Source: an uncultured Clostridia bacterium (lineage in GTDB: Bacteria > Bacillota > Clostridia > Christensenellales > UBA1242). From it: DNA of 64,000 nucleotides. The DNA is taken from NCBI GenBank assembly GCA_944381825.1, contig CALWMK010000002.1:34660-98659 (forward strand), in the 5' to 3' direction. Made by a program: the position numbers and the translations under genes. Shown here piece by piece: positions 3,800 through 62,468 of the stretch (its first letter is position 1; each line of letters opens with the position of its first letter). The notes under the pieces are model-generated. The model saw only the letters and a program-made list of their open reading frames with translations. It made no database searches and was not told the origin of the DNA.

Positions 3800-6214
3800 T
3801 TAAAGGGATTTAAATTCAAGTTGGTTATTTTTTAAATCAACAAAAATTTTTCCGCTTTTTTCCAGTTCATTCAAAAGTAGTTTTTCAGCTATAACATCCT
3901 CTATATTTTGCTGAATAAATCGTTTTAATGGTCTTGCTCCATAAACAATGTTAGATCCCTTTTCTATTATATAATCAATTGCCGATTCAGAAAGTTGAAT
4001 CTCAAGATTTTGTTTATTGAGTCTATTATTAACCGTTGAAAGCATAATCTCGCATATTTTTTTAAGATCATTTTTTGTAAGAGGATGAAATATGCAAATT
4101 ACATCAAGACGATTAATAAATTCTGGTCTAAATTTTCTTTTTAAGGCATCCATATAAATATCTTCAACATCTCTATTGTCTTGATTTTCATTAACAAAAC
4201 CTAAGCGTTTCTTTTCAACTTCACCTGCTCCGAGATTACTTGTTAAAATTATGATTGTATTGGTAAAATTAACAACTCTGCCCTGTCCATCAGTCAGTCT
4301 TCCATCATCTAAAATTTGAAGTAATGTATTAAAAATATCTGGATGAGCTTTTTCAATTTCGTCAAATAATATAACAGAATATGGTTTTCTTCGAACTTGT
4401 TCTGTGAGTTGTCCCCCTTCATCATAACCAACATAACCTGGAGGAGCTCCGATTAGCTTTGATACAGAATGGGATTCCATATATTCACTCATATCAATTC
4501 TTATAATATTATTTTCATTATCAAAAAGTGCTTCTGCAAGAGCTTTGCAAAGTTCGGTTTTTCCCACACCAGTTTGACCCATAAACAAAAATGAGCCAAT
4601 TGGTCTTTTACTATCTTGAAGGCCAACTCTAGAACGTCTTATTGCTTTAGAAACAGCTGAAATTGCCTCATCTTGACCAATTACACGTTTGTGCAAAATT
4701 TCTTCCAAATGAATTAATTTTTCCTTTTCTGTTTCAGTTATTTTGCTTACTGGTATGCCGGTCCACTTAGAAACAACCGCCGCAATTTCATTGGCCGTGA
4801 TTGTTTTGCTATTTGGAGTCTTTTTTATTAACTTTTCAGAAAGTTCGTTAATTTCGTTTTCTAAATTAATTATTTTAGTCTGATATTCTGCTGCCTTTTC
4901 ATAATTCCTTTGGTTCGAAGCTTCATCTCTATTTGCTTGAAGCTGTTTTAAAGTTTCTTCTTTTTCTCTAATTGCACTTGGTTTTAAATTAAAATTTACT
5001 TTTGCCTTGCTGCTTGCTTCATCAATTAAATCAATAGCCTTATCTGGCAAGCTTCTATCAGTAATATATCTATCAGAAAGTTGAGCCGCCGCCTCTATTG
5101 CACTATCAGAAATAACTACTTTATGAAAAGCCTCATATGAATCTCTAACACCTTTTAAAATTTCAATGGTTTGTTCAACAGATGGTGGATTGATTAAGAT
5201 TGGTTGAAATCTTCTTTCTAAAGCCTTATCTTTTTCAATATATTTTCTATATTCATCAGTTGTAGTTGCTCCAATAGTTTGCATTTCACCTCTAGCCAAG
5301 TATGGCTTAAGCATATCTGCTGGTGAGGTTTCTCCCTTTTCGCTTCCAGCTTGAGCCAAAGTGTGAATTTCATCAATAAAAACAATGATATCTTTTCTCT
5401 CTATAATTGTTTCTATTGCATCTTTAAGCTTTTCCTCCATAGCGCCTCTATATTTTGTGCCCGCCATAAGTCCGCCAATTTCTAAAGAATAAATGATTTT
5501 ATCTTTTAACAATTCAGGAACATCCCCATTTGCTATTGCAAGAGCCAATCCTTCAACAACAGCAGTTTTTCCCACTCCCGCTTCACCAATCAAAACTGGA
5601 TTATTTTTTGTTTTACGGCATAATATTTCTATAATTCTTTGAATTTCTTCCTCTCTCCCAATAACGGGATCAATTTTATGTTCTCTTGCCTTTTTAGTTA
5701 TGTCACATCCCATTTGAGCAAGTTTTTCTGGAAGTTCTTTTGAATTTTCAGCATTTGAATTTGCTTGAGTTTCACTAGAGTTTTGAAGTAGATTTAAAAG
5801 CCTACTTTTAAGATCATTTAAATTTATTCTAAAATAAGATACTAATAATCTTACAGCAAAACTACCTGTCGACGAAATTAATGCCAAAAGAATATGCTCG
5901 GTTCCAACATAGTTGTGCTTAAGTTCTAAAGCAACTTTTTGTGCCAACTTAAAAATCTCTTTCACCCTTGGTGAAAGTTCAACTCCGCCAATCAAATTCA
6001 ATTCATCAGCATTTTCTTCAAAGATTTCAAGCAAGTTCTTTTTGGTGACACCAAATTCCGATAGAACTTTAGATGCCACAGCATCTTTATTGGCAACAAG
6101 ACCATATAAAATATGTTCAGTTCCAACTTGATTGCACCCATACCTTAGTGCAATTTCGGTTGCAGAGTTTAAAACCTCTTCAACACTATCCGCAAATTGT
6201 CCATTATAATTCAT
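3800..6214 (-). CDS. clpC: ATP-dependent Clp protease ATP-binding subunit ClpC
   Basis: 804 aa with N-terminal Clp-R repeats and two AAA+ modules (GEAGVGKT and GQTGVGKT Walker A). Last gene of the ctsR-mcsA-mcsB-clpC order. Confidence 0.95.
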
Positions 6215-15196: not shown

Positions 15197-18100
15197 ATGG
15201 AAAAATTTATCAATGTTGATGGAAATACTGCTGCCGCAAATATAGCCTATTATTTTAGTGAAGTTGCCGCTATCTATCCAATTACTCCCTCATCAAACAT
15301 GGCAGAACTTTGTGATGAATGGGCAAGCACTGGAAAAACAAATTATTTTAATATGCCTGTTAAAGTTGAGCAAATGCAATCGGAAGCTGGCGCGGCTGGA
15401 GCGGTTCATGGGAGTTTGACTGCGGGAGCATTAACAACCACATTTACTGCAAGTCAAGGTCTATTATTAATGATACCAAACATGTATAAAATAGCTGGTG
15501 AACTTTTGCCATGTGTTTTTCATGTTTCTGCAAGAGCGGTCGCCACACATGCTTTGTCAATATTTGGGGATCACTCCGATGTTATGGCATGCAGAATGAC
15601 TGGATTTAATATGCTAGCATCTTCAAATGTTCAAGAAGCTCAAGATTTAGCAGTGATAGCACATGTTTCATCTATCAAATCCTCTTTGCCATTTTTACAT
15701 TTTTTTGATGGATTTAGAACTTCACATGAAATTCAAAAAATTCAAGCAATAGATAAAAACACATTAAATGAACTAATGCCTGTTGACGAACTCACTGCCT
15801 TTAAAAGGCGTGCTTTAAGCCCAGTCAATCCTTGTCAACGGGGTACAGCTCAAAATCCCGATATTTTTTTTCAAAATCGCGAAGCTTGTAATAAATATTA
15901 TGATGATGTTTATAAGATAGTAGAAGCTTCTATGGAAGAGTTTGCACAAAAAACTGGCAGAGTTTATCATCCATTTGATTATTATGGTCCAAAAAATCCT
16001 AGTAACTTAATAGTAATTATGGGAAGTGGTGCTCAAACCGTGATAGATGTGGCAAGTCATGAAAGCAATTTAGGTGTGATTGTAGTAAGATTATATAGAC
16101 CATTTAATTCAAAAGCTTTTGTAAAGCTTATTCCAAGTTCTGTTAAATGCATCACTGTTTTGGATAGAACAAAAGAAAGTGGTGCAACATTTGAGCCATT
16201 GTGTCAAGATGTTATTTCTGCACTTAGTGAATATGATATGCAAATTAAAGTTCTTGGAGGAAGATATGGTTTAGGAAGCAAAGAATTCACTCCACAATGT
16301 GTTCAAGCAGTATTAAGCAATATGCAATCAAAATCATCTAAAAATCATTTTACTGTAGGAATTTTTGATGATGTAACCAATACATCTCTTGAATTGAATG
16401 AAGATTATAAAATCCCTCATTCATACAAACAATTAAAATTTTTTGGTCTTGGTGGCGATGGAACAGTCAGTGCAAACAAAAATGCCATTAAAATTATTGG
16501 TGAAAATTCAGAATATTTCACGCAAGGATATTTTGAATATGATTCAAAAAAATCAGGAAGTTTAACAATTTCTCACTTAAGAATGAGTCCAAATGAAATA
16601 CGCGCGCCCTATCTTGTTACAGAAGCAGACTTTATTGCAATACACAATTTTAATTTTGTAGCAAGATATAGAATATTAGAGGATTTAAAACAAAATGGAA
16701 CAGTTCTATTAAACACCGCTTTGAGACCAGAACAACTTTCCACTCATCTTCCAACAAATTTTAAAAAAGCATTGTTAGACAAAAAGGCAAAACTATTCAT
16801 TATTGATGCACAAGAAAAGGCTCAAAAAATTGGATTAAAAAATAAAATTAACACAATAATGCAATCAGCTTTTTTTAAAATATCAAATGTCATCGATTAT
16901 AACAAAGCAAAAAAGGCACTAAAAATGGCGGCGGAAAAAACTTATGGCAAAAAGGGCGAAAAAGTTGTCAATATGAATTTTGAAGCCATTGAACTTGGTG
17001 AACAAGTACAGAAAGTTCCTTTAAATTTAATTAATTTATATGAAAATTCTAGCTATGACAAAGAAACTAAAAACAAATATTACAGAAATTTTATAGAACC
17101 AATAAATCGCTTAGAAGGAAATGCATTGAAGGTGTCGGAATTTTCCCCTGATGGAACGGTTCCAACTGGCACCACAAAATATGAAAAACGAGGAATCGCT
17201 GACAAATGCCCAAATTGGATAAGTGAAAATTGCATACAATGTGGTTTTTGTACCCTTGTTTGCCCTCATGCAGCTCTTAGAAGCAAATTAATTAACGAAC
17301 AACAACTAAAAGATGCACCTGAAAAATTCAAAACTGTTAAAGCAATTGGTGAAGACAATAAAAACTTTTGTTTGCAACTAAGCCCTCTTGATTGTACAGG
17401 ATGTGGAGTTTGCGCTCAAGTTTGTCCTGCAAAAAACAAAGCTTTGGCAATGGAGCCAGCCTCAATTATTTATGAAAAGGAAAAAGACAATTTTAATTAC
17501 TTTAAAAATTTAGTTTCTCAAAATTCCAAATTTAGGTCAGATACAATAAAAGGGCTTCAATATAAGCAACCTTATTTTGAATATAACTATGCTTGTGCAG
17601 GATGCGGTGAAACACCATATATTAAAATTGCCACTCAACTTTTTGGTGACACTATGATTATTGCAAATGCAACTGGTTGTTCTAGTATTTATGGAGGCTC
17701 TGCGCCCGCCTGCCCTTACACTAAAAATGAAAAAGGCTTTGGTCCAAGCTGGGCAAATAGTCTTTTTGAAGATAATGCAGAATTTGGAATGGGAATCAAA
17801 TTTGCATTGGAAACTCATAAAGCTAAACTAATTAGCTTAGTTCAAATGTTGATACAGGAAAATGAAATTAATAAAACTCTTAATTTACTATTGCAAAAAT
17901 TTATTGCTTCGCCAAACAATTTGTTGGCAAATGAATGTGATGAAATTATAAATTTATTACAAAAAGAAAAACAAAATGAACTAATAGACGAAATTTTAAA
18001 AAGAAAAGATGATTTTTACAAAAAAAGTGTTTGGATAATTGGTGGAGATGGTTGGGCATATGACATAGGTTATGGCGGGCTTGACCATTTACTTAGTTCA

Positions 18101-24419: not shown

Positions 24420-24495
24420 GGGCTGTTAGCTCAGTTGGTAGAGCAACTGACTCTTAATCAGTGGGTCCGGGGTTCGAGTCCCCGACAGCCCACCA
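24420..24495 (+). tRNA. tRNA-Lys (anticodon CUU), CCA encoded
   Basis: Hand-folded cloverleaf: GGGCTGT/ta/GCTC-agttggta-GAGC/a/ACTGA-CTCTTAA-TCAGT/gggtc/CGGGG-ttcgagt-CCCCG/ACAGCCC/a/cca. All stems pair, 76 nt. Confidence 0.95.
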
Positions 24496-24591
24496 CGCGT
24501 TAGTCCCTTATAAAATAAGGGATTTTTTAATGTCAAGATATTAAAAAAACAACTCAAAACTGTCTAAAATTTTCGTAAAAAGTGTCTAAAA
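24451..24591 (+). repeat. Left 141-bp direct repeat (attL-like): tRNA-Lys anticodon loop to 3' end plus 96 nt
   Basis: Aligns to 28762-28902 with 4 mismatches and no indels (hand alignment). Confidence 0.9.
24504..24528 (+). terminator. Intrinsic terminator after tRNA-Lys
   Basis: TCCCTTAT-aaa-ATAAGGGA hairpin followed by TTTTTT. Confidence 0.8.
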
Positions 24592-24703
24592 AATGTCATT
24601 TTTGCATGTAAAATTTTAATATTTCACATTGCATAAAAACATCGAATTTTACTTAAAAATTGCCACTGTCTAAAAAACTGTCTAAAATTTTTAGAAAAAT
24701 AGC

Positions 24704-24740
24704 ACAAAAAAAGACTGAGAATTATCATAAATTCTCAGTC
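24704..24740 (-). terminator. Intrinsic terminator behind the integrase remnant
   Basis: Perfect 11-bp stem GACTGAGAATT/AATTCTCAGTC (24713-24740), followed on the minus strand by a T-run. A near-identical copy is at 29100-29127. Confidence 0.8.
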
Positions 24741-24747
24741 AATTTTA

Positions 24748-25197
24748 TTACATTTCAAAATCTTTTTGTTTTTTCTTTTTACGCATTTCTTTTTCTTTTA
24801 GCCACTCTTTATATTCTTCATCTTCTTGTTGAGATTTTAATTGTTCTTCTAACTTTGCAATTTTTTCTTCAAGTCCTTTTGTCTTATCAATTTCGTTTGT
24901 TTTTTCCTTTTCTTCTTTCTTTGAATTAAAATTAAAAACATTTGAAATTGTTATTGCCGAATTTTGCTTTGTTTTATAATCCAAGTGGCTGTAAATATTC
25001 GCTGTGGTGCCAAAATCGGTGTGTCCAAGCCATTATTGAATTTGTTTCATAGGAACTCCGTTAGATGGCATAATGCTCGTGCAAGAGTGCCTTAAATCGT
25101 GAAATCTTATCTTTCTTAAATTGTTTCTTCGTAAAATTTTGATAAAATTTTTTGTTAACCTGTTAGGGAGTATCAATCTTCCAAGATTATAAATTTT
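24748..25197 (-). pseudogene. Tyrosine recombinase/phage-type integrase, C-terminal fragment with an in-frame stop
   Basis: My translation: ..NRLTKNFIKILRRNNLRKIRFHDLRHSCTSIMPSNGVPMKQIQ*WLGHTDFGTTANIYSHLDYKTK.. It has the HxxR box and the catalytic Tyr region. A TAA sits at 25033-25035. The N-terminal ~2/3 is missing (frame closed above 25197). Confidence 0.85.
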
Positions 25198-28761: not shown

Positions 28762-28902
28762 CTCTTAATCAGTGGGTCCGGGGTTCGAGTCCCCGACAGC
28801 CCACCACGCGATAGTCCCTTATAAAATAAGGGATTTTTTAATGTCAAGATATTAAAAAATTAACTCAAAACCGTCTAAAATTTTCGTAAAAAGTGTCTAA
28901 AA
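28762..28902 (+). repeat. Right 141-bp direct repeat (attR-like) containing a displaced tRNA-Lys 3' fragment (28762-28806)
   Basis: Identical to tRNA positions 32-76, followed by the same terminator hairpin. There is no matching 5' acceptor or D arm upstream. Confidence 0.9.
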
Positions 28903-29090
28903 TTTCAATATTTTTAACAAAAATAATTATCGTTTTGCAAACTAATTTTTCACTCAAAAACAGCCTAAAATTGCCACTGTCTAAAAAATTGTCTAAAAAT
29001 AAGCGAGTAAGAAAATGAAAATTTTGTTTTTTACATTTGCTTACGAACGCCATTTTCATCAACAAAAATTATTTAATTTTAGAAAAACAG

Positions 29091-29127
29091 CAAAAAAAAG
29101 ACTGAGAATTATCATAAATTCACAGTC
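29091..29127 (-). terminator. Intrinsic terminator behind the ASCH pseudogene (copy of the 24713-24740 hairpin)
   Basis: GACTGAGAATT-atcata-AATTCACAGTC has one stem mismatch. A T-run follows on the minus strand. Confidence 0.7.
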
Positions 29128-29134
29128 GATTTTT

Positions 29135-29514
29135 TCATTTTACAATCAGCCAACCAGCACCATTGCTTCGTTTGACTTTAATTGGTGCAACATTTTTTAC
29201 ACCACTAAGCCATATAAGAGTGCAAATTTTTATGGTGTTGTTTCCCAATCTACAAATTTATCAGTTCCAATTTGCTTACCATAACATAGCCGTATTTCTT
29301 CAACAATTTCGGGTGTAAGTTCATAATATTTTACATCTTTAACAATAGCAATAGCAGTCACATCTTTGCCGGTTTCTTTCAGTAGAATTTTATCCCCGAT
29401 ACTTACTTTTCCATAAGGCGCAACTTTATTCATGCTCCATCTGCTTTCAATAGTCTTTTTACCAGAAAGCACCATGTCAAAAAATGGTTGCCTTAAAATT
29501 GCCATATGTTGCAT
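29135..29514 (-). pseudogene. ASCH-domain protein, disrupted by an in-frame stop plus a frameshift
   Basis: The 94-aa ORF ends ...DWETTP*. The frame continues KFALL, then a -1 shift gives IWLSGVKNVAPIKVKRSNGAGWLIVK*, which looks like the natural C-terminus. Confidence 0.65.
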
Positions 29515-29548: not shown

Positions 29549-30850
29549 CTACCTCAAAATATTTAACATTTCCTCAAATGTAACTTGTTTTTGTTCAAAG
29601 GCATTTAAATCTTTTAATGTAAAGTAATTATTTTTCACCTCATCTTCGCCTATAATAACCGCATAGTTAGCATTTGCCTTTGTCGCATATAAAATTTTGT
29701 TTTTAAATTTAGTTTCTTCAAAATAAACAATGTTATTTATATTATTATTTCTAAGTTGATTACTAAGTGCAATGCATTCATCTATTGTGTTACCCATAGG
29801 CAAAATCACAACCTTTGCAATAGCACCTTTTTCTTGTTTTAAAAGGTTGTTTTCTTTTAGTTGGTAAAATAGTCTTGTAAGTCCAATGGACATCCCTACT
29901 CCAGGCAATTTTTCTTTGGTGTAATATTCTGCAAGATTATCGAATCTACCTCCGCTACAAACACTTCCTAAATTTTCATGACCTGTGATAAATGTTTCAT
30001 AAACTGTTCCAGTATAATAATCAAGTCCTCGAGCGATTGAAAGGTTTATATTAAAATAATCTTCTTCAACACCAAACGCGCGCATGTTTTTTATAACATG
30101 CTCCAACTCTTCAACACCTTCATTAAAATCACTATTGTCTATTTTAAATTTCTTAAGTTTTTCAAGTTGTTGATTTGTAGTACCGTCAATTTTAATAAAT
30201 TGAAGCAACTTATTAATAATATCATCCTCAATTTTGTAGTCCAATTTCAAAGTAAGAACAAAATTTTCCTCACCAATTTTAGCAAATTTATCAATTAATC
30301 TTAAAATATCAACTGAATCTTTTAGTCCCAAATTTTCAATTAGTCCCAATAAAATTTTTCTATTGCTAACAAAAATAGTAAATTTACCTATATTTAATTC
30401 TTTGAAAATTCTATACATGATGCTTGGAATTTCTGCATCATAATAAAGACTTAGAGAGTTTTTCCCAATAACATCAATATCGCATTGATAAAATTCTCTA
30501 AATCTTCCCTTTTGAGGTTTTTCACCACGATAAACCTTTCCTATTTGATACCTTGCAAAAGGGAAATTGAGTGAATCAAAGTTCGCAGCGACATATTTCG
30601 CTAAAGGCACAGTAAGGTCAAATCGCATACAAATTTTGTTATCACCTTTTGTAAAACTATAAATTTGTTTTTCAGTTTCTCCGCCAGCTTTAGCAAGTAA
30701 CACTTCACTGTTTTCTAAAACCGGTGTGTCTATAGGCAAAAAACCATAACTTTCAAAATTTTTTTTAATTATATTCACAACTTTATTAAACAAAATTTGA
30801 TCTTCTGGCAAAAGTTCCATAAAGCCAGGCAAAGTTTTTGGTTCTATCAT
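29549..30850 (-). CDS. hisS: Histidine--tRNA ligase
   Basis: 433 aa with class II motifs (RYQIGKVYRGEKPQKGRFREFYQCD, GGRFDNL). Confidence 0.95.
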   Translation of the reverse strand: MIEPKTLPGFMELLPEDQILFNKVVNIIKKNFESYGFLPIDTPVLENSEVLLAKAGGETEKQIYSFTKGDNKICMRFDLTVPLAKYVAANFDSLNFPFARYQIGKVYRGEKPQKGRFREFYQCDIDVIGKNSLSLYYDAEIPSIMYRIFKELNIGKFTIFVSNRKILLGLIENLGLKDSVDILRLIDKFAKIGEENFVLTLKLDYKIEDDIINKLLQFIKIDGTTNQQLEKLKKFKIDNSDFNEGVEELEHVIKNMRAFGVEEDYFNINLSIARGLDYYTGTVYETFITGHENLGSVCSGGRFDNLAEYYTKEKLPGVGMSIGLTRLFYQLKENNLLKQEKGAIAKVVILPMGNTIDECIALSNQLRNNNINNIVYFEETKFKNKILYATKANANYAVIIGEDEVKNNYFTLKDLNAFEQKQVTFEEMLNILR

Positions 30851-30901: not shown

Positions 30902-30974
30902 ACTACTTGCGGTATTGATTTATAGCATATATAAAGCAACATAATATCATTTCATTATAATTTTTTCACTCTTT

Positions 30975-31003
30975 TAATAAAAGTTCACACCTGTTAAGTG
31001 TGA
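30975..31003 (-). terminator. Candidate terminator downstream of argS and the repeat array
   Basis: The minus strand reads TCACACttaacagGTGTGA followed by ACTTTTATT. Confidence 0.45.
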
Positions 31004-31080
31004 TTAAAAAATTATATTTTTTTTCGTTAAACATTGTTTTTAAATTAACACATGCTTTTATTATTTTCGAATTTATTATA

Positions 31081-31551
31081 TAAACTATGTGATGTTAAAT
31101 TTTGCTTGCGCCAAAATTTAAGTTTTGTTTACACAAAACAAAGCAAAAACTATTGTTTTTTCTTCATCACAGTTTGAATTAACATCAGTTTTGCTTGCAA
31201 ATGACTTCGTCGCTTGCAGACAAAACTTCCGATAATATAAACTATGTGATGTTAAATTTTGCTTGCGCCAAAATTTAAGTTTTGTTTACACAAAACAAAG
31301 CAAAAACTATTGTTTTTTCTTCATCACAGTTTGAATTAACATCAGTTTTGCTTGCAAATGACTTCGTCGCTTGCAGACAAAACTTCCGATAATATAAACT
31401 ATGTGATGTTAAATTTTGCTTGCGCCAAAATTTAAGTTTTGTTTGCATAAAACAAAGCAAAAACTATTGTTTTTTCTTCATCACTATTTGTATTAACATC
31501 AGTCATTTGAAAATAATGCTTCGCATTGCTTTCCTCTGACTTCCGTTAATA
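31081..31551. repeat. Tandem array of 3 x 157-bp hairpin-rich modular repeats
   Basis: The landmark TAAAC recurs at 31081, 31238, 31395 and 31552, an exact 157-bp period. Units 1 and 2 look identical by eye. Unit 3 differs in a 41-nt module (31501-31541). Confidence 0.9.
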
Positions 31552-31773
31552 TAAACAATAAGTTTAAGCATTATACCAAATCTCGTCAATAGCATTAAAT
31601 CTAAATATATAATTAAAATGTTTATGAATTTTGTTTGTCATTATTCTTTTTCTAATGATTCTACAAACATAATCCACCTCATCAAAATTAAATTAAAAAT
31701 TTATGATTCAATTAAATAACTTAAAACCAAAGATAAATAAAAATATGTTTCCCCTAATTAGCACATGAAAATC

Positions 31774-33531
31774 TCACATTCTATCCAAGCTTTTAATTGC
31801 AAGAAGCTTTAAACATTTTTCTATAACTTCCAAAGTCAATTTAGTCAATTCAATCTTTGAACTTTTAATTTTAGTATCCTGCTCATATATTATGCTTGAT
31901 TTTGCATAAAAGGAATTAAATGCATTTGCCAGTTTATAAACATAGTCACAAATAAGGTTTGGAGACAAACTTTTATATGCTAAAACTATTTCTTTGTGAA
32001 ATTGAATCAAAATCAGGGCAAGTTTTCTATCTTCTCCAAAGATTTCAAAATCGACATTAGAAGAAAAGTCTTTTACCTTATTTAAAATGGATTTTGCTCT
32101 TGTCACTGTGTACAAAATATATGGTCCTGTCTTGCCTTCAAATGAGGTAAATTTATCAACATCAAAAATATAATCTTTTGTTCTATAAATTGACAAGTCT
32201 GCAAATTTTAATGCTGCAAGAGCTATGACATTTGCAATATTTTCCATCTCATCATTTAAAAGCAAATCTTCTTGTTTTGATAGTTTTAATTTTTCAAGAG
32301 CTTTAGTTTTAACATCTTGAATCAAAACACTAAGTTGCATAACTCCACCATCTCTTGTTTTATAGGGCTTTCCATCTTTGCCATTCATGGTGCCAAACCC
32401 AACAAAACAAAGTTCGATAGGCTTTTTTAAAATTTTGATTTTATTGACACATCTAAAAACCTGTGTGAAATGCATTTCTTGTCTGTTGTCAACAACATAA
32501 ATTATTTTGTCTACATTATTTTCTCTTTCTCTTTGAACAATTGTCGCTAAATCTGTTGTACTATACAAAACAGAACCATCAGATTTTAAAAGTATAAAAG
32601 GAGGCACCTCTTTTTTATCACCTTCTTCACTTACATCTACTATCCAAGCTCCTTGACTAAGCTTTGCATATCCGCTATTTTTTGTATATTCGACAACCTC
32701 TTCATAGTATTTTCTGGAGTCACTTTCTCCAAGCCAAAGATCAAAACTAACATTTAAATTATCATAGTTTTTTTTCAAATCTTTTTTGGAGAGTTCTAAA
32801 ATATTTTTCCATAGAGCAAGATATCCACGTCTTCCATGTTGAAGTTCAAAAGTTGCTTGTTTTGCCTCTTCCATGGCATTTTCATCACTTTTTGCCCGCG
32901 CACTAGCTTTTGGATATAAAATTGAAAGTTCATCTAATGTTACGGGTGAAAAATCAGGATATTTTCCCTTATAATGTTCATCAAAATATACTAAATTAGG
33001 TTGCATTCTTTTAATTTCAGTTATAACCATGCCCATTTGAAGCCCCCAATCCCCCAAATGCACATCACCCAATGTGTTATCTCCTAAATATGAACATAGC
33101 CTTTTTATACTCTCACCAATTATAGCCGTTCTCAAATGACCAACATGAAGAGGTTTTGCAACATTTGCACCACCATAATCAACTATAACATTTTTTTTCT
33201 CACCATGTTTTTTTACTATTTCATCTACATGTTTTAAATATTTAACCAAATACTTAGCAAGCTCAAAATTATCTAAAAATATGTTTATGTAGCCAGGCGC
33301 AGCAACACTTGCATTTGCTATTAGTTCCACTTTCCCTAAATTAGAAAGAACATCATTTGCTATTTGCATAGGAGATTTATGATATTTTTTTGCCAACATA
33401 AGGGGCTCACAACATTGATAATCTCCTAAATTTTCCAAACTACAAATTTGAACATTAACATCTTCATTATATCCGCTTTTTTTAAAAGCATTTGAAAGCT
33501 CTTTTGCTAATATTTCTTCAACTAATTCCAT
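31774..33531 (-). CDS. argS: Arginine--tRNA ligase
   Basis: 585 aa with the class I HIGH-type motif PLHVGHLRTAIIG and an anticodon-binding C-terminus. Confidence 0.95.
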   Translation of the reverse strand: MELVEEILAKELSNAFKKSGYNEDVNVQICSLENLGDYQCCEPLMLAKKYHKSPMQIANDVLSNLGKVELIANASVAAPGYINIFLDNFELAKYLVKYLKHVDEIVKKHGEKKNVIVDYGGANVAKPLHVGHLRTAIIGESIKRLCSYLGDNTLGDVHLGDWGLQMGMVITEIKRMQPNLVYFDEHYKGKYPDFSPVTLDELSILYPKASARAKSDENAMEEAKQATFELQHGRRGYLALWKNILELSKKDLKKNYDNLNVSFDLWLGESDSRKYYEEVVEYTKNSGYAKLSQGAWIVDVSEEGDKKEVPPFILLKSDGSVLYSTTDLATIVQRERENNVDKIIYVVDNRQEMHFTQVFRCVNKIKILKKPIELCFVGFGTMNGKDGKPYKTRDGGVMQLSVLIQDVKTKALEKLKLSKQEDLLLNDEMENIANVIALAALKFADLSIYRTKDYIFDVDKFTSFEGKTGPYILYTVTRAKSILNKVKDFSSNVDFEIFGEDRKLALILIQFHKEIVLAYKSLSPNLICDYVYKLANAFNSFYAKSSIIYEQDTKIKSSKIELTKLTLEVIEKCLKLLAIKSLDRM

Positions 33532-33579: not shown

Positions 33580-33685
33580 TTAAAGAGTTTTTCTAATATA
33601 ATCTTAACTATATAAATTACCATTAAAAAAAGTCAAAGCAAATTTAATCCACTTTGAACTTTATTTTTTTTGACATTAATTACTT

Positions 33686-34648
33686 TTATCTTCCAACCGT
33701 GGTATTATCTTCTTTTCTATTTTGCAAATCTTTAACTGGATTTAATGAGGTTTCAAATCTGTAATCTTGTTTATTGTTTTTAATATACATTTCAATAACT
33801 TTATGACTAGGAACTTGTGCTAAATTTTTATTAATAATGTTTTGGATTTTAAAAAATTCATAATCTTGAGGCAAAGAAGAAACTTTAACATAATCCTCTT
33901 TTTTAGCCGTATTATATACCGTATTTTTCAATACTTTTCTAATATATTCAATATTAGATTTCCCAAATGATAACAATTCTGGAAATTTGCCTCCATTTTT
34001 ATAAACAGTTGTGTAATCTCGATTTTCATATTTGGTTAATAATTCATTAGCCTTGTGTAAATGTGCAATCTCTTGTTCTAGGCAAACCTCCCAAATTCTT
34101 TTAATTTGTTCATCTGTTTCATCATTAATCATTGAATAATATAAATAACACTCTGTATACTCATGTTCTAGCAAGCTTACTAGCCAAGTGCAAGTTGGGT
34201 CCATTAAACTTTCATATTGTGAAACATGCTGTTCTTCTATCATACCTATTTCAGCAAATAATTTTCTGCCAATCTCACTCTTATATAAATTAGCCACATT
34301 CATATAAAAATTCATGGTTTGTTGTTCTGCCGCAGTAATAATAGCAACATTAAGTCTTGTAATAGAATCTGCAACTTTGTTGTCGCCAGCATATCTTACA
34401 TCATCATAAGGATGCCTATGTTCGGATATAGTAGGTCTTCCAGGTGTTATTTCAGTAAATCCTCCCACCAAATTTTTAGCATCTATACCTTGTTCCATCA
34501 TCAAAAGATTTGAAAATCTATACAAATGATCAAAGTCCTCTAAAAGAGCAAAGTCCAACGCTTTTTTTACGCTCATATCACTTTCTCTTTGTGCCAAATT
34601 CGCTGTTAATTCTATTGCAAGTTGTTCATAAGAAATTGTTGTTTCCAA
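33686..34648 (-). CDS. Ferritin-like/diiron-fold protein, C-terminal part of a split gene
   Basis: 320-aa ORF with ExxH-type pairs (MIEEQHVSQYE, LEQEIAHLH). Its frame stays open upstream through the T7 run at 34682-34688. Confidence 0.6.
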   Translation of the reverse strand: METTISYEQLAIELTANLAQRESDMSVKKALDFALLEDFDHLYRFSNLLMMEQGIDAKNLVGGFTEITPGRPTISEHRHPYDDVRYAGDNKVADSITRLNVAIITAAEQQTMNFYMNVANLYKSEIGRKLFAEIGMIEEQHVSQYESLMDPTCTWLVSLLEHEYTECYLYYSMINDETDEQIKRIWEVCLEQEIAHLHKANELLTKYENRDYTTVYKNGGKFPELLSFGKSNIEYIRKVLKNTVYNTAKKEDYVKVSSLPQDYEFFKIQNIINKNLAQVPSHKVIEMYIKNNKQDYRFETSLNPVKDLQNRKEDNTTVGR

Positions 34649-34668
34649 AACATCTTCATCAATAGGTT

Positions 34669-34947
34669 TTAAAGATGAATCTTTTTTTGTTGCTGTTGTT
34701 CAACCCTTCTAATGAGAGCAATTTCCCTTCTAATATCATTATCAATACAATGTCTCGCAAACTGATGTGAATGCCAATTCATTTCAAATTCGGTTCCGTT
34801 CATCAAAATAATTCTAACCTTTGTAAATGGGTCAACTGTGTTTTTATCGTAAGGTTTAACAAACAACTTATTCCAGTTTTCAATTGTCTTTTCAACTTTT
34901 TTTGGTTTTTCCTCAAATGGATTAAAACTCATATTATTATCCTCCAA
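34669..34947 (-). CDS. N-terminal part of the same ferritin-like gene
   Basis: The 92-aa ORF ends just after the A7 run (minus strand). A 1-nt shift there gives ...RRVEQQQQKKDSSLKPIDEDVLETTISYEQL... Confidence 0.6.
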   Translation of the reverse strand: MEDNNMSFNPFEEKPKKVEKTIENWNKLFVKPYDKNTVDPFTKVRIILMNGTEFEMNWHSHQFARHCIDNDIRREIALIRRVEQQQQKKIHL

Positions 34948-52458: not shown

Positions 52459-52811
52459 TGGTGGAAACGGTGGGATTTGAACCCACGTCCGAATAGGCTG
52501 AATTTTGCCTTTCTCCGTGTGCAGTTTATGTTTTAGTTTCATTCAAGTTTCTTCCATAAACAAAATAAACTTGAACAAGCCACAATTTTAAATTTCAAAA
52601 ATTAGTGACAAATTTTTGAAATTTCCTATTATCATTTGATGCCAAATAAATTTTTAATAGGAAAAAAATTTATTGACAAGTTGCATTAGGCTGCAACAGC
52701 GCCGTAATTGTTATTTGCGTTTATTTTTTGACCAAGTTTTTAGGTAGGCTCAGCCATCTACCACACGCTTTATACAAAATCTAGTCCCAATCGTCGAAAC
52801 CTATCGTCCCC
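52459..52811 (-). ncRNA. ssrA: tmRNA (SsrA)
   Basis: The minus strand starts GGGGACGATAGGTTTCGACG and ends GGACGTGGGTTCAAATCCCACCGTTTCCACCA. The acceptor stem pairs with a G3-U. Internal tag frame: GCA AAT AAC AAT TAC GGC GCT GTT GCA GCC TAA (ANNNYGAVAA*). It lies immediately after smpB. Confidence 0.93.
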
Positions 52812-58291: not shown

Positions 58292-59119
58292 TTAATTTGT
58301 AAATCTTTTAAAATAGAAAAATAATTGTTGAATATATGCCGATAAATTTTGAAAAGTATGAACAAGATTTTCACGCATCTTTTTCCTATCCTTTTCATTT
58401 TCATTAAAATATTGATGGTAAACCTTTTCTATCCAAGTATCTACAGGAAATACATCTTTTTTATCATATACTGACATAAGGATACAATCAGCCACTTTAC
58501 TTCCTATTCCACAATATTTTAAAAGCTCATTTTTTAATACTGAAGTTTCAAGATAATAATAATCTTTTAACTTTTGAAAATCTAATGCATCTATTAATCT
58601 TACAAGTTGACTTGCTCTATAACCACAGCCTGCAGCAATAAAAAATTTTTCATCTAATTGTTTGAGTTTATCTAATGTCGGAAAGGAGTAGAACTCTCCC
58701 ATATTTTCACCCGCATTTTCTCTTAAATATTTTATTGATTTTTTAATGCGTTTTATATTGTTATTTGCAGAAATGGCCCAACTAACAAACATTTCAACCA
58801 TATCTTGTTTCAACATTCTAATGCCATAACCATAGTTTAGAATTTGAACAAATTGGGGAAAATTTTCTAAAATTATTTTTTTATAAACATTATAATCGCT
58901 TTTCAAATCAAAAAAGTTTATAAAATAATCAATATCGCTAGTAAAAATCTTAACCACATTATTTTCTTTTTTAACTTTCGCGCATTTGTTTCCACTTAAA
59001 ACTAAATAGTAATCACGCATTTTTTCATATGAAAAAATTTGACCGCTTTCTAATATTTGGTCAATATTAAATTGAGATAAATCATTAATTTCTATGTAAT
59101 CTTTTTTAACTTTAAACAT
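58292..59119 (-). CDS. ogg: 8-oxoguanine DNA glycosylase/AP lyase (Ogg, HhH-GPD)
   Basis: 275 aa with N-terminal ESGQIF and HhH-GPD sequence with a catalytic Lys (CGIGSKVADCILM...FPVDTWI). Confidence 0.8.
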   Translation of the reverse strand: MFKVKKDYIEINDLSQFNIDQILESGQIFSYEKMRDYYLVLSGNKCAKVKKENNVVKIFTSDIDYFINFFDLKSDYNVYKKIILENFPQFVQILNYGYGIRMLKQDMVEMFVSWAISANNNIKRIKKSIKYLRENAGENMGEFYSFPTLDKLKQLDEKFFIAAGCGYRASQLVRLIDALDFQKLKDYYYLETSVLKNELLKYCGIGSKVADCILMSVYDKKDVFPVDTWIEKVYHQYFNENEKDRKKMRENLVHTFQNLSAYIQQLFFYFKRFTN

Positions 59120-59215
59120 GATTGTATTATAACATTATATTTTTTAAAATAAAAGATATAAAATAAAATCTTAAACAATAAGTCTAAGATTTTATTTAAA
59201 TTTTAAAAATATTTA

Positions 59216-59485
59216 TTAAATAATATTAACAAACTTTTTATCACCGCTTTGTGAAAAATTAACTTTTCCATCTACAAGTGCATAAATTGTATAATCTTTT
59301 CCAAGACCAACATTTTTTCCTGGATAGAACTTTGTTCCTCTTTGTCTTACAATTATGCTTCCAGCTGTGACAGTTTGTCCATCACCGCATTTAACGCCCA
59401 ATCTTTTAGCTTGTGAATCTCTTCCATTTTTTGTGCTACCGCCACCTTTCTTATGGGCAAAAAGCTGCAGATTAATAAATTTCAT
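59216..59485 (-). CDS. rpmA: 50S ribosomal protein L27 with N-terminal propeptide
   Basis: 89 aa. [10 protein letters not shown] then [14 protein letters not shown], the propeptide form processed by Prp in Bacillota. Confidence 0.95.
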
Positions 59486-59807
59486 TACAGACCTCCACTT
59501 TCATAAATTTTTCATTTCCAATTTCAATATCCTTTAAACTAATGTACAGAGTTTGCATTAAAACATTTGCAATTTTTGCCTGCTGTTTGGAAAGCTCAAA
59601 GGAAAATTCACCTTTCTTTTCTTCTTTTTTAAATTTAACATCCAACCCCAAAACTTTTGAAATTCCTAGATAGGTGGATTGAACAAGAGCTGAAATTGCA
59701 CTACAAAGCACATCTTCCCCACTAAAAGCTTTCCCCGTATGACCTTTGCAAGTAATAGAATATAAAAATTGATTTTTTTTAAAAATTATATTCGTCATTT
59801 TATACAA
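59472..59807 (-). CDS. prp: Ribosomal-processing cysteine protease Prp
   Basis: 111 aa between rplU and rpmA with conserved GHTG and CSAISAL motifs. Confidence 0.85.
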
Positions 59808-60105
59808 TCTCAGTAATTTTTACCTTTGTGTAAGGTTGACGATGCCCTTGTTTACTACGAACGTTTTTCTTTGCTTTGTATTTGTACACAACAATTTTAT
59901 CACCTTTGCCATGTTCAACTACTTCGGCTTTGACCTTTACATTTTTCACATATGGGTTTCCTGTAGTAACTTTCCCGTTTTTTTCAAGCATTAAAGCATT
60001 AAATTCTACAACTGAGTTAACTTCATTATCAAGCTTTTCTACACAAACTAAATCGCCAACTTGAACTTTATATTGCTTTCCGCCTGTTTCAATAATTGCA
60101 AACAT
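59800..60105 (-). CDS. rplU: 50S ribosomal protein L21
   Basis: 101 aa. MFAIIETGGKQYKVQVGD is canonical L21. Confidence 0.97.
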   Translation of the reverse strand: MFAIIETGGKQYKVQVGDLVCVEKLDNEVNSVVEFNALMLEKNGKVTTGNPYVKNVKVKAEVVEHGKGDKIVVYKYKAKKNVRSKQGHRQPYTKVKITEIV

Positions 60106-61964: not shown

Positions 61965-62151
61965 TTTGTTACAACCTTTTTGTTTTAAACAAATAATAAA
62001 TTTTATTTTTTCAAATTTGCAAGAATGAATTAATAACAAAAAGATTTTGAAATATATTCAAAACGTGCATTAATATAATATCATACATTAAAATTTTTGC
62101 AAAATATTTTACCCCTCTCACAAGCAGTGCACTATTATCTATATAAATTTA

Positions 62152-62444
62152 TATTATCGGAAGTTTTGTCTGCAAGCGACGGAGTCATTTGCAAGCAAAA
62201 CTGATGTTAATTCAAACAGTGATGAAGAAAAAACTTTAGTTTTTGCTTTGTTTTGTGTAAACAAAACTTAAATTTTGATGCAAGCAAAATTTAACATCAC
62301 ATAGTTTATATAATCGGAAGTTTTGTCTGAATGCGCCTTTAGACATTTCCAAACAAAACTGATGTTTATTAAAACTGTTATGAAGAAAAAACATCAGTTT
62401 TTGCTTTGTTTTGTGTAAACAGAACTTAACATCACATAGTTTTT
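62152..62444. repeat. Second array (2 units) of the 157-bp repeat family, inverted relative to 31081-31551
   Basis: Unit 62152-62308 is the reverse complement of the 31238-31394 unit with 6 mismatches in 157 (hand alignment). Unit 62309-62444 has a different 42-nt module and a clean 23-nt hairpin deletion. Confidence 0.9.
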
Positions 62445-62468
62445 AATATAATTTTAATAATTTTTATC

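Follow-up and report, generated by a model that had tools for sequence, protein, structure and literature searches.

Between argS and hisS, the window (the whole 64-kb stretch of DNA analysed here) carries three head-to-tail units of 157 bp at 31085-31555. We conclude that these units are copies of a non-coding mobile element of approximately 150 bp found in uncultured gut Clostridia. Our best explanation, in which we have about even confidence, is that the element is moved by a Xer-like tyrosine recombinase acting on a dif-like site that is formed wherever two units abut.

A tandem array between argS and hisS

Tandem Repeats Finder returned a period of 157 with 2.7 copies and 98% matches (31078-31503, score 817), and a repeat search placed 157-nt copies in register at 31075-31231, 31232-31388 (99%), and 31389-31545 (79%). 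Both results confirm a first-pass annotation that had described tandem 157-bp units between these two genes, and each of the minus-strand sequence landmarks that it listed is present on reading the sequence. The third unit, A3, differs almost solely in a hairpin of approximately 40 nt, where it has another sequence that still forms a hairpin. The hairpin at 31003-30985 is the sole terminator-like site that a terminator scan returned in the region. Coordinates are collected in Table 1, in which the plus strand of array A is called forward.

Table 1. Features of the two arrays and their surroundings (window coordinates).
Feature	Position	Strand	Description
Array A	31079..31555	+	Left core TATAAA 31079-31084, then three units
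Units A1, A2, A3	31085-31241, 31242-31398, 31399-31555	+	Plus strand of array A = forward
Unit extent, array A		+	Starts CTATGTGATG, finishes ACTTCCG(A/T)TAA-TATAAA
Hairpin P1 of A1	31095..31121	+	TTAAATTTTG-cttgcgc-CAAAATTTAA; repeated at 31252-31278 and 31409-31435
Hairpins P2 and P3 of A1	31122..31164	+	P2 31122-31139, P3 31141-31164
Conserved block 2	31165..31188	+	CATCAC AGTTTGAATTAAC ATCAG; imperfect inverted copy of junction sequence
Variable hairpin P4 of A1	31187..31227	+	A3 counterpart 31501-31541: different sequence, same fold
dif-like junction 1	31225..31252	+	C arm ACTTCCGATAA 31225-31235, centre TATAAA 31236-31241, D arm CTATGTGATGT 31242-31252
dif-like junction 2	31382..31409	+	28-mer identical to junction 1
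Right boundary half-site	31539..31555	+	ACTTCCGTTAA + TATAAA, then unrelated flank CAATAAG...
Orphan promoter	31561..31589	-	TTGACG ... TGGTATAAT; now reads into array A
Terminator-like hairpin	30985..31003	-	Downstream of array A on minus strand
argS	31774-33531	-	
hisS	29549-30850	-	
Empty site	33606..33621	+	AACTATATAAATTACC, contains TATAAA; L022 carries variant unit there
Array B	62143..62447	-	Two units, forward on minus strand: B1 62439-62306 (without P1), B2 62304-62149
Array B dif-like junction	62294-62321		18.1 bits

Several known classes of sequence were considered for the array and rejected. CRISPR, type III toxin-antitoxin RNA repeats, and tRNA-like genes have the wrong period or architecture, and ARAGORN made no call; the earlier statement that the array is not a CRISPR holds on the same grounds. 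It was likewise correct that the array is not a T-box, since the units match no Rfam family, T-boxes included: nothing was found at the gathering score, and below it (searched to E 10) only chance-level matches with E of approximately 2 or more. The Rfam scan also found no T-box in the hisS leader and no self-cleaving ribozyme in the region. The promoter-like TTGCAG-16-TATAAA that had been noted on the plus strand at each unit junction does exist at the two internal junctions, but its sequence and spacing are not conserved in other units, its -35-like part sits in the variable hairpin, and the promoter scan does not contain it, so that a unit-internal promoter was discarded. The same applies to a mini-ORF on the minus strand (MKKKQ*), which has no ribosome-binding site and whose stop codon differs between units.

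Related units at other loci

A search with parts of the unit for copy number and context, as the first-pass annotation had suggested, yielded a second array of two units in the window, which that annotation had missed. Array B lies on the opposite strand to array A, between the divergent AcnX and 382-aa genes. A1 and A2 match B2, at a distance of 31 kb, with 96% identity, but their own neighbour A3 with just 85%. Among GTDB species genomes, an exact-core scan returned one chance match, in a coding region of a Rickettsiales MAG, and a two-anchor pattern found four loci with diverged units, single or paired, in metagenome contigs. The related units reside in Candidatus Caccovivens and in other gut metagenome contigs; one locus comes from Candidatus Caccovivens faecavium (Clostridia; PPDK 99% identical). 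The window itself belongs to an uncultured low-GC gut bacterium of Clostridia-like type, with Clostridia MAGs at 55% identity as the nearest named relatives of its ArgS. L014 comes from the sole such unit-bearing host that shares a gene with the window, ribosomal protein L21, and this protein is just 57% identical. Scans of viral contigs and blastn against phage and plasmid collections returned chance AT-rich matches only, and a full-text literature search found no paper containing the conserved blocks.

The distribution of the units is patchy. A profile search found no units in a sister species (ArgS 92%, 21.7 kb) and none in three relatives at approximately 60% ArgS identity (approximately 75 kb). 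At least 9 different intergenic loci are occupied, with neighbours that include argS/hisS, AcnX, PPDK, EngB, MreB, L27/OGG, MntP, DnaX, and SpoVG. These are unrelated housekeeping genes, and a tie to any particular neighbouring gene was therefore rejected.

Two of the other loci have features of their own. L014 (574-2669) and the window (58292-60105) share the gene order L21-Prp-L27-OGG; L014 has a two-unit array between L27 and OGG, with no room for a separate OGG promoter, and the window has a terminator and a promoter at this position instead of an array. In L015, approximately 600 bp of non-coding DNA (4940-5540) lie between two separate units, contain several copies of GCAAG...ATATAA(AC), and finish in a strong bidirectional terminator. 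The sequence ACTTCGCTTAATATAAAC, just upstream of the first L015 unit, resembles the 3′ end of a lost unit.

Unit junctions resemble dif sites

The junction between two units reads ACTTCCGATAA-TATAAA-CTATGTGATGT, i.e., two 11-bp arms that are inverted repeats at 7/11 positions and that enclose a 6-bp centre. Its resemblance to dif, the site through which bacteria separate entangled chromosomes, had not been noted in the first-pass annotation. We scored the window with a position weight matrix (PWM) made from 20 distinct predicted Firmicutes dif sites (Kono et al. 2011, PMC3025954, Additional file 2). The junctions starting at 31225, 31382, and 62294 are the three best PWM sites in the 64 kb, with 23.4, 23.4, and 18.1 bits; in 30 shuffles, the mean maximum was 11.5 bits and the largest 18.3, and the sites from which the matrix was trained score 24.9-39.8 bits. 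For a 23.4-bit junction, the exact tail P is 8e-9 per site, or approximately 2.5e-6 per unit. Another dif-like match, at 16000-16027, was discarded because it lies inside a 1153-aa ORF and its score is within the shuffle range.

The same source gives predicted dif sites for Macrococcus (ACTTCCGATAATATATATTATGTAAACT), S. aureus (ACTTCCTATAATATATATTATGTAAACT), and Desulforudis (ACTTCCGATAATAGATATTATGTTGCCT) (Kono et al. 2011, PMC3025954). The junction is identical to the predicted Macrococcus site at 23/28 positions, including the first 15 bases, and its C arm is identical (11/11) to arms of the predicted Macrococcus and Desulforudis sites. The XerC-type arm carries most of the score (16.3 bits), the XerD-type arm being divergent (5.2 bits), and the junction thus has the pattern of the TLC-phi and gonococcal genetic island (GGI) attachment sites, in which the XerC arm and centre are kept and the XerD arm is divergent (PMC5357621).

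The boundaries of single and terminal copies were determined at 9 places, and the element ends inside the 6-bp centre. The left boundary consists of flank, TATAAA, and CTATGTGATG, and the right boundary of ACTTCCGATAA, TATAAA, and flank; the base after the core is always the element's on the left and always the flank's on the right. Tyrosine recombinases exchange strands in the centre of the core site (PMC5357621). The flank-side half-sites at array ends have low PWM scores and are mostly not dif-like. The arms are 7 nt apart in one junction (L013), and the left cores of array B, L002, and L030 have two extra A. In place of CTATGTGATGT, a variant unit in L022 (1687-1840) has the 5′ arm CTAACGGAAGT, which is nearly the exact inverse of the 3′ arm ACTTCCGATAA; the two ends of this unit are thus inverted repeats with hardly a mismatch, which is also seen in sites to which a single recombinase binds.

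The element is mobile

Among strains and contigs with identical ArgS, the number of units between argS and hisS is 3, 2, or 1. Seven contigs break off within a unit, which a multi-copy repeat would be expected to cause; strain L002 differs in the left flank of array A and has an internally deleted unit. In Caccovivens, two units are inserted between an LRR gene and spoVG in L030 (21164-21467), and L028 and L031 have no insert at this site; PPDK is identical among all three strains. The target (A/T)ATAAAAA is found on both sides of the insert: the empty site in L028 reads CAAACT-AATAAAAA-GTATGC and the filled site in L030 reads CAAACT-TATAAAAA-[CTATGTGATG ... CCGATAA]-TATAAAAAA-GTATGC. At the corresponding position, L031 (21170-21200) has AATAAAAA-ATTAAAAAA and no element, and L028 (21150-21175) has a single AATAAAAA; the doubled target in L031 may be an excision footprint of the element or the result of simple slippage. 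The two-unit composite of L030 aligns over its full length with that of L013, the flanks of which are unrelated. Arrays mix unit subtypes, and L013 and L014 contain the same two subtypes in reverse order.

The position next to argS is a lineage-specific accident: other genes, and no array, come after argS in the sister species and in L022 (ArgS 94%). Array A sits at the junction of a missing 6.7-kb segment that is present in relatives, and its right boundary cuts a 191-aa gene, now deleted, between promoter and ribosome-binding site. In L022, the promoter equivalent to that at 31561-31589 drives this 191-aa gene; because the gene has been deleted behind the boundary in the window species, the promoter-like site at 31589-31561 is an orphan that reads into the array. 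L022 carries its variant unit between a 415-aa gene and argS, where the window has the empty site alone. Two further differences were seen around array A. What is left of a 173-aa gene lies downstream of argS in the window (31561-31691); compared with L022 (3768-4212), it has lost 444 bp internally, and the orphaned 191-aa gene promoter comes next. In addition, the approximately 170 nt between array A and the hisS promoter (30904-31077), which include the terminator-like hairpin, have no counterpart in the sister species.

At all five loci between co-directional genes (array A, L012, L014, L022, and L030), the reverse strand of the units is sense to the genes, and in L013 the units lie the other way round, in a 3′ UTR. 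In L030, L014, and L013, insertion took place in or just after the T-tract of an intrinsic terminator. The core is asymmetric, with TTTATA on the gene-sense strand at the end of the terminator T-tract, and this sufficiently explains the orientation bias. Relative to replication, arrays A and B point in opposite directions, the GC skew of the window being uniformly negative, a comparison of two arrays only.

The alternative that survives best against this evidence, although we consider it unlikely, is a MITE moved by a DDE-type transposase, with a coincidental resemblance to dif. The ends CTATGTGATGT and TTATCGGAAGT (the reverse complement of the right end) would then be imperfect 11-bp terminal inverted repeats, and the transposase would strongly prefer an AT-rich target and duplicate TATAAA (6-8 bp) there. 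Arrays would grow as further copies inserted into the target already duplicated by a resident copy. TATAAA does occur at both ends in most loci, the L030 insert is flanked on either side by the same 8-bp TATAAAAA, which matches the empty site AATAAAAA of L028, the two tandem target copies of L031 look like an excision footprint, and the family is multi-copy, intergenic, and patchy. The ends are inverted repeats at 7/11 positions, and at 9/11 in the L022 variant, but the arms of a recombination core site would look just the same, and as terminal repeats they are short and poor. Moreover, the duplication would have to vary in length from 6 to 8 bp (it is 8 bp in L030), its left and right copies differ in array B, L014, and L015_1, and neither a parent IS nor stray ends were found in the 551 kb searched. 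A MITE would also leave to chance the 11/11 match of the XerC-type arm to predicted dif arms and a junction with the above per-site P of 8e-9, and the four covarying internal hairpins described below are unexpected in a simple MITE.

Four hairpins covary

In the forward direction, the unit runs from CTATGTGATGT through hairpins P1, P2, and P3 to the block CATCAC-AGTTTGAATTAAC-ATCAG, and then through hairpin P4 to ACTTCCGATAA-TATAAA. The most conserved part of the element is the unit junction; the blocks CTATGTGATGTTAAA, CATCACAGTTTGAATTAACATCAG, and CTTCCGATAATATAAA are almost invariant across units, including those of the host in which L21 is only 57% identical. P1 is precisely missing from B1, and the versions of P4 (A1/A2/B2, A3, and B1) share no sequence, yet all fold as hairpins. 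Minimum-energy folds of 14 distinct units have one architecture throughout, in which GUGAUG/CAUCAC closes a four-way junction with P1-P3 and is followed by a long hairpin topped by P4.

In an alignment of the 14 units, 89.4% of the cells are paired, compared to 78.0% in shuffles (0/500), and both partners have changed in 19 pairs. Covariation scored 0.324; shuffles scored 0.126, sliding the partners gave no more than 0.083, and 9/10 inner pairs of P4 covary. Covariation, which the first-pass annotation had recommended testing, is thus strong in four hairpins. The conserved block 2 could pair in two further ways, CATCAC with GTGATG (helix P0) and AGTTTGAATTAAC with GATAATATAAACT (helix P5). Both helices are invariant, with conserved mismatches, and show no covariation; because the closing helix and the helix below P4 never vary, the alignment neither supports nor refutes these pairings. 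A folded "dif duplex" made of P0 and P5 is possible on paper and was rejected, being invariant and having many mismatches and no covariation.

Folding energies of single units are 2.8 to 6.2 SD below those of dinucleotide shuffles on either strand, with z-scores of -2.8 to -4.7 for the forward and -3.0 to -6.2 for the reverse strand. The reverse strand is lower in raw energy, but this is an effect of base composition, since its shuffles are lower too. G.U pairs number 48 versus 51 between the strands, and neither strand is favoured by G.U counts or by z-scores.

The covariation in four helices and the z-scores bear on the proposal in the first-pass annotation of a structured ncRNA array or argS 3′ UTR, and more generally on functional structured RNAs (sRNAs, 3′-UTR elements, or processing elements) that would be present as tandem genes sense to their neighbours. 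The structural part of this proposal was right, in that the structure is real and covaries. An RNA would also account for the uniform strand sense at the five co-directional loci, and at array A, the orphan promoter reads into the units and a terminator follows them. However, the orientation bias is already explained by the asymmetric TTTATA target at the ends of terminator T-tracts, and the units occur in either orientation at unrelated loci, those of L013 being reversed inside a 3′ UTR. They have no conserved promoter or terminator of their own, no strand preference in G.U pairs or z-scores, and no Rfam match. Near-identical strains differ in whether they carry the units, close relatives lack them, and it is the junction, not a helix or loop, that is conserved most. 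A functional RNA is therefore an improbable explanation.

Covariation fits a single-stranded DNA intermediate as well, and the first-pass annotation had offered, as its second proposal, a non-autonomous hairpin element of the IS200/IS605-PATE or RAYT-REP kind. A mobile element is borne out by the insertion polymorphism, copy-number variation, and patchiness; the assignment to either of these kinds, i.e., movement as ssDNA by a Y1 HUH transposase, is not supported and we think it improbable. An IS200/IS605-type element would insert 3′ of TATAAA without duplication and would carry the motif at its right end too, so that copies stack; in agreement with this, TA(T/A)AAA invariably closes the left flank and TATAAA the right end, which makes head-to-tail stacking natural, and conserved hairpins lie near both ends. 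However, these hairpins are unrelated (P1 versus P4), P1 is absent from B1, and P4 is wholly different between units of one genome, whereas end hairpins to which a transposase binds would be alike at both ends and conserved in a genome; arrays A and B, in one replichore with uniform GC skew, point in opposite directions where a bias relative to the replication fork would be expected (two arrays only), the right junction of L030 has three A more than predicted, and no tnpA or RAYT gene was found in the 551 kb searched. As for REP/RAYT elements (REPIN, BIME), these consist of 20-40-nt palindromes that share a 5′ GTAG and form inverted doublets; the units, at approximately 150 bp, are direct repeats that have four different hairpins, and none of their palindromes starts with GTAG.

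A model for movement, and comparison with known systems

Movement by a Xer-like tyrosine recombinase would proceed as follows. The element spans CTATGTGATGT to ACTTCCGATAA, bounded on both sides by the 6-bp core TATAAA. The ends of two abutting units form, and those of one circularised unit would form, a dif-type core site, ACTTCCGATAA-TATAAA-CTATGTGATGT, which we read as a canonical Firmicutes XerC-type arm and a divergent XerD-type arm. We infer that a tyrosine recombinase, either host XerC/XerD or a Xer-like enzyme acting in trans, would exchange strands in the TATAAA centre, possibly via a circular intermediate. One or more units would thereby integrate into a TATAAA-like sequence, often the T-tract after a terminator, or into the site of a resident copy. 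Successive integrations would build head-to-tail arrays of mixed subtypes, and recombination between copies would change the number of units and cause deletions and rearrangements. The covarying hairpins imply a role for a single-stranded form, which might be folded ssDNA during recombination or replication, or a tolerated transcript.

Several points count against this model. The integration targets are not dif-like; a Xer enzyme normally requires each partner to have the two arms, and the Xer-exploiting elements known so far insert at chromosomal dif. The 8-bp identical flanks of L030 and the possible footprint in L031 resemble a transposase-type target duplication. A double-stranded circle of 157 bp would be very small, and recombination between double strands would leave the hairpins unexplained. 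A search for recombinase motifs in all ORFs of 551 kb gave one false match only and no xer gene. In a more specific form of the model, gene-less ssDNA modules of approximately 150 nt, folded as a four-way junction followed by a long hairpin, would recombine through a host XerC/XerD-like enzyme at TATAAA sequences other than dif and stack into arrays, which would make them the smallest Xer-type integrative elements; this is possible, but we hold it to be doubtful.

Among known systems, CTX-phi has an attachment site that is formed by a folded single strand (hairpin). IMEX in general (TLC-phi, VGJ-phi, CTX-phi, and the gonococcal genetic island) resemble the units in having a dif-like site that keeps the XerC-type arm and centre while its XerD-type arm diverges, in encoding no recombinase, and in accumulating head to tail (PMC5357621). 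The unit junction is likewise dif-like and is the top PWM site in the window. However, IMEX are kilobases long, carry genes, and sit at chromosomal dif, whereas the units are approximately 150 bp, non-coding, and located at many intergenic sites that are not dif, the two arrays of the window being 31 kb apart in DNA of uniformly negative GC skew. The pdif (dif) modules of Acinetobacter are similar in that XerC/XerD-type sites bound modules away from the terminus and modules lie side by side; they carry genes, their sites alternate in orientation, and they are found mainly on plasmids, whereas the units are gene-less, with direct-repeat sites every 150 bp or so.

Integron attC arrays share with the units a Xer-related tyrosine recombinase (here putative), folded single-stranded sites, conserved boxes, extrahelical bases, and a variable terminal structure, and the long hairpin P0-P5-P4 has the general layout of attC. 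In contrast to integrons, the units have AAC/GTT core triplets only terminally (TTAAC...GTTAA), internal units having GATAA; R''/R' boxes (RYYYAAC/GTTRRRY) are accordingly confined to terminal units. There are no variable cassettes, intI, or attI, the arrays are dispersed, and the ORFs of the 551 kb contain no tyrosine recombinase motif. By this comparison, the element would work most like Xer-exploiting integrative elements and, more loosely, like integron cassettes, but it belongs to neither.

As a genomic object, the units resemble BOX, RUP, ERIC, bcr1, and NIME repeats. BOX, RUP, ERIC, Correia, bcr1, and Neisseria NIME/dRS3 are short multi-copy intergenic repeats with stable predicted structure and variable copy number, and some are modular or tandem, such as boxB and the NIME units, which are separated by dRS3, a target of phage integration. 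The units differ from BOX-type repeats in forming complete head-to-tail copies and in having a four-way junction plus a long hairpin. We know of no sequence similarity of the units to any of these repeats, and of no report that any of them rebuilds a dif-like site at its junctions.

Other features of the window

Three observations concern other parts of the window. A direct repeat of approximately 300 bp (24451-24762 and 28762-29147, 82-88% identical), the first copy of which starts inside tRNA-Lys (24420-24495), brackets approximately 4.3 kb of small minus-strand ORFs that include LURP-one-related and Tubby-like proteins. This arrangement resembles the att duplication left by an island that has entered at a tRNA 3′ end, but no integrase was seen there. 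The 415-aa gene upstream of argS is split into 320-aa and 92-aa ORFs (33686-34947), as it is in contig L005, and is intact in most other strains, so that a frameshift polymorphism or a pseudogene is probable. The tmRNA gene (52459-52811, minus strand) has an unusual short tag, ANNNYGAVAA, and adjoins smpB and RNase R-like ORFs.

Implications

The unit family breaks metagenome assemblies of its host species and can be mistaken for an sRNA or a 3′-UTR element. If the dif-like junction is functional, elements that carry no genes are able to hijack the ubiquitous machinery of chromosome-dimer resolution, or one closely related to it, and can do so at sites other than dif. This would be a new route by which small repeats spread, driving deletions and rearrangements in gut Clostridia, and the units would provide a compact natural substrate for studies of Xer-type recombination. 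Should the units indeed move as folded ssDNA modules, they would be a miniature, cassette-like analogue of CTX-phi and integron attC recombination that reshapes the genomes of gut Clostridia.
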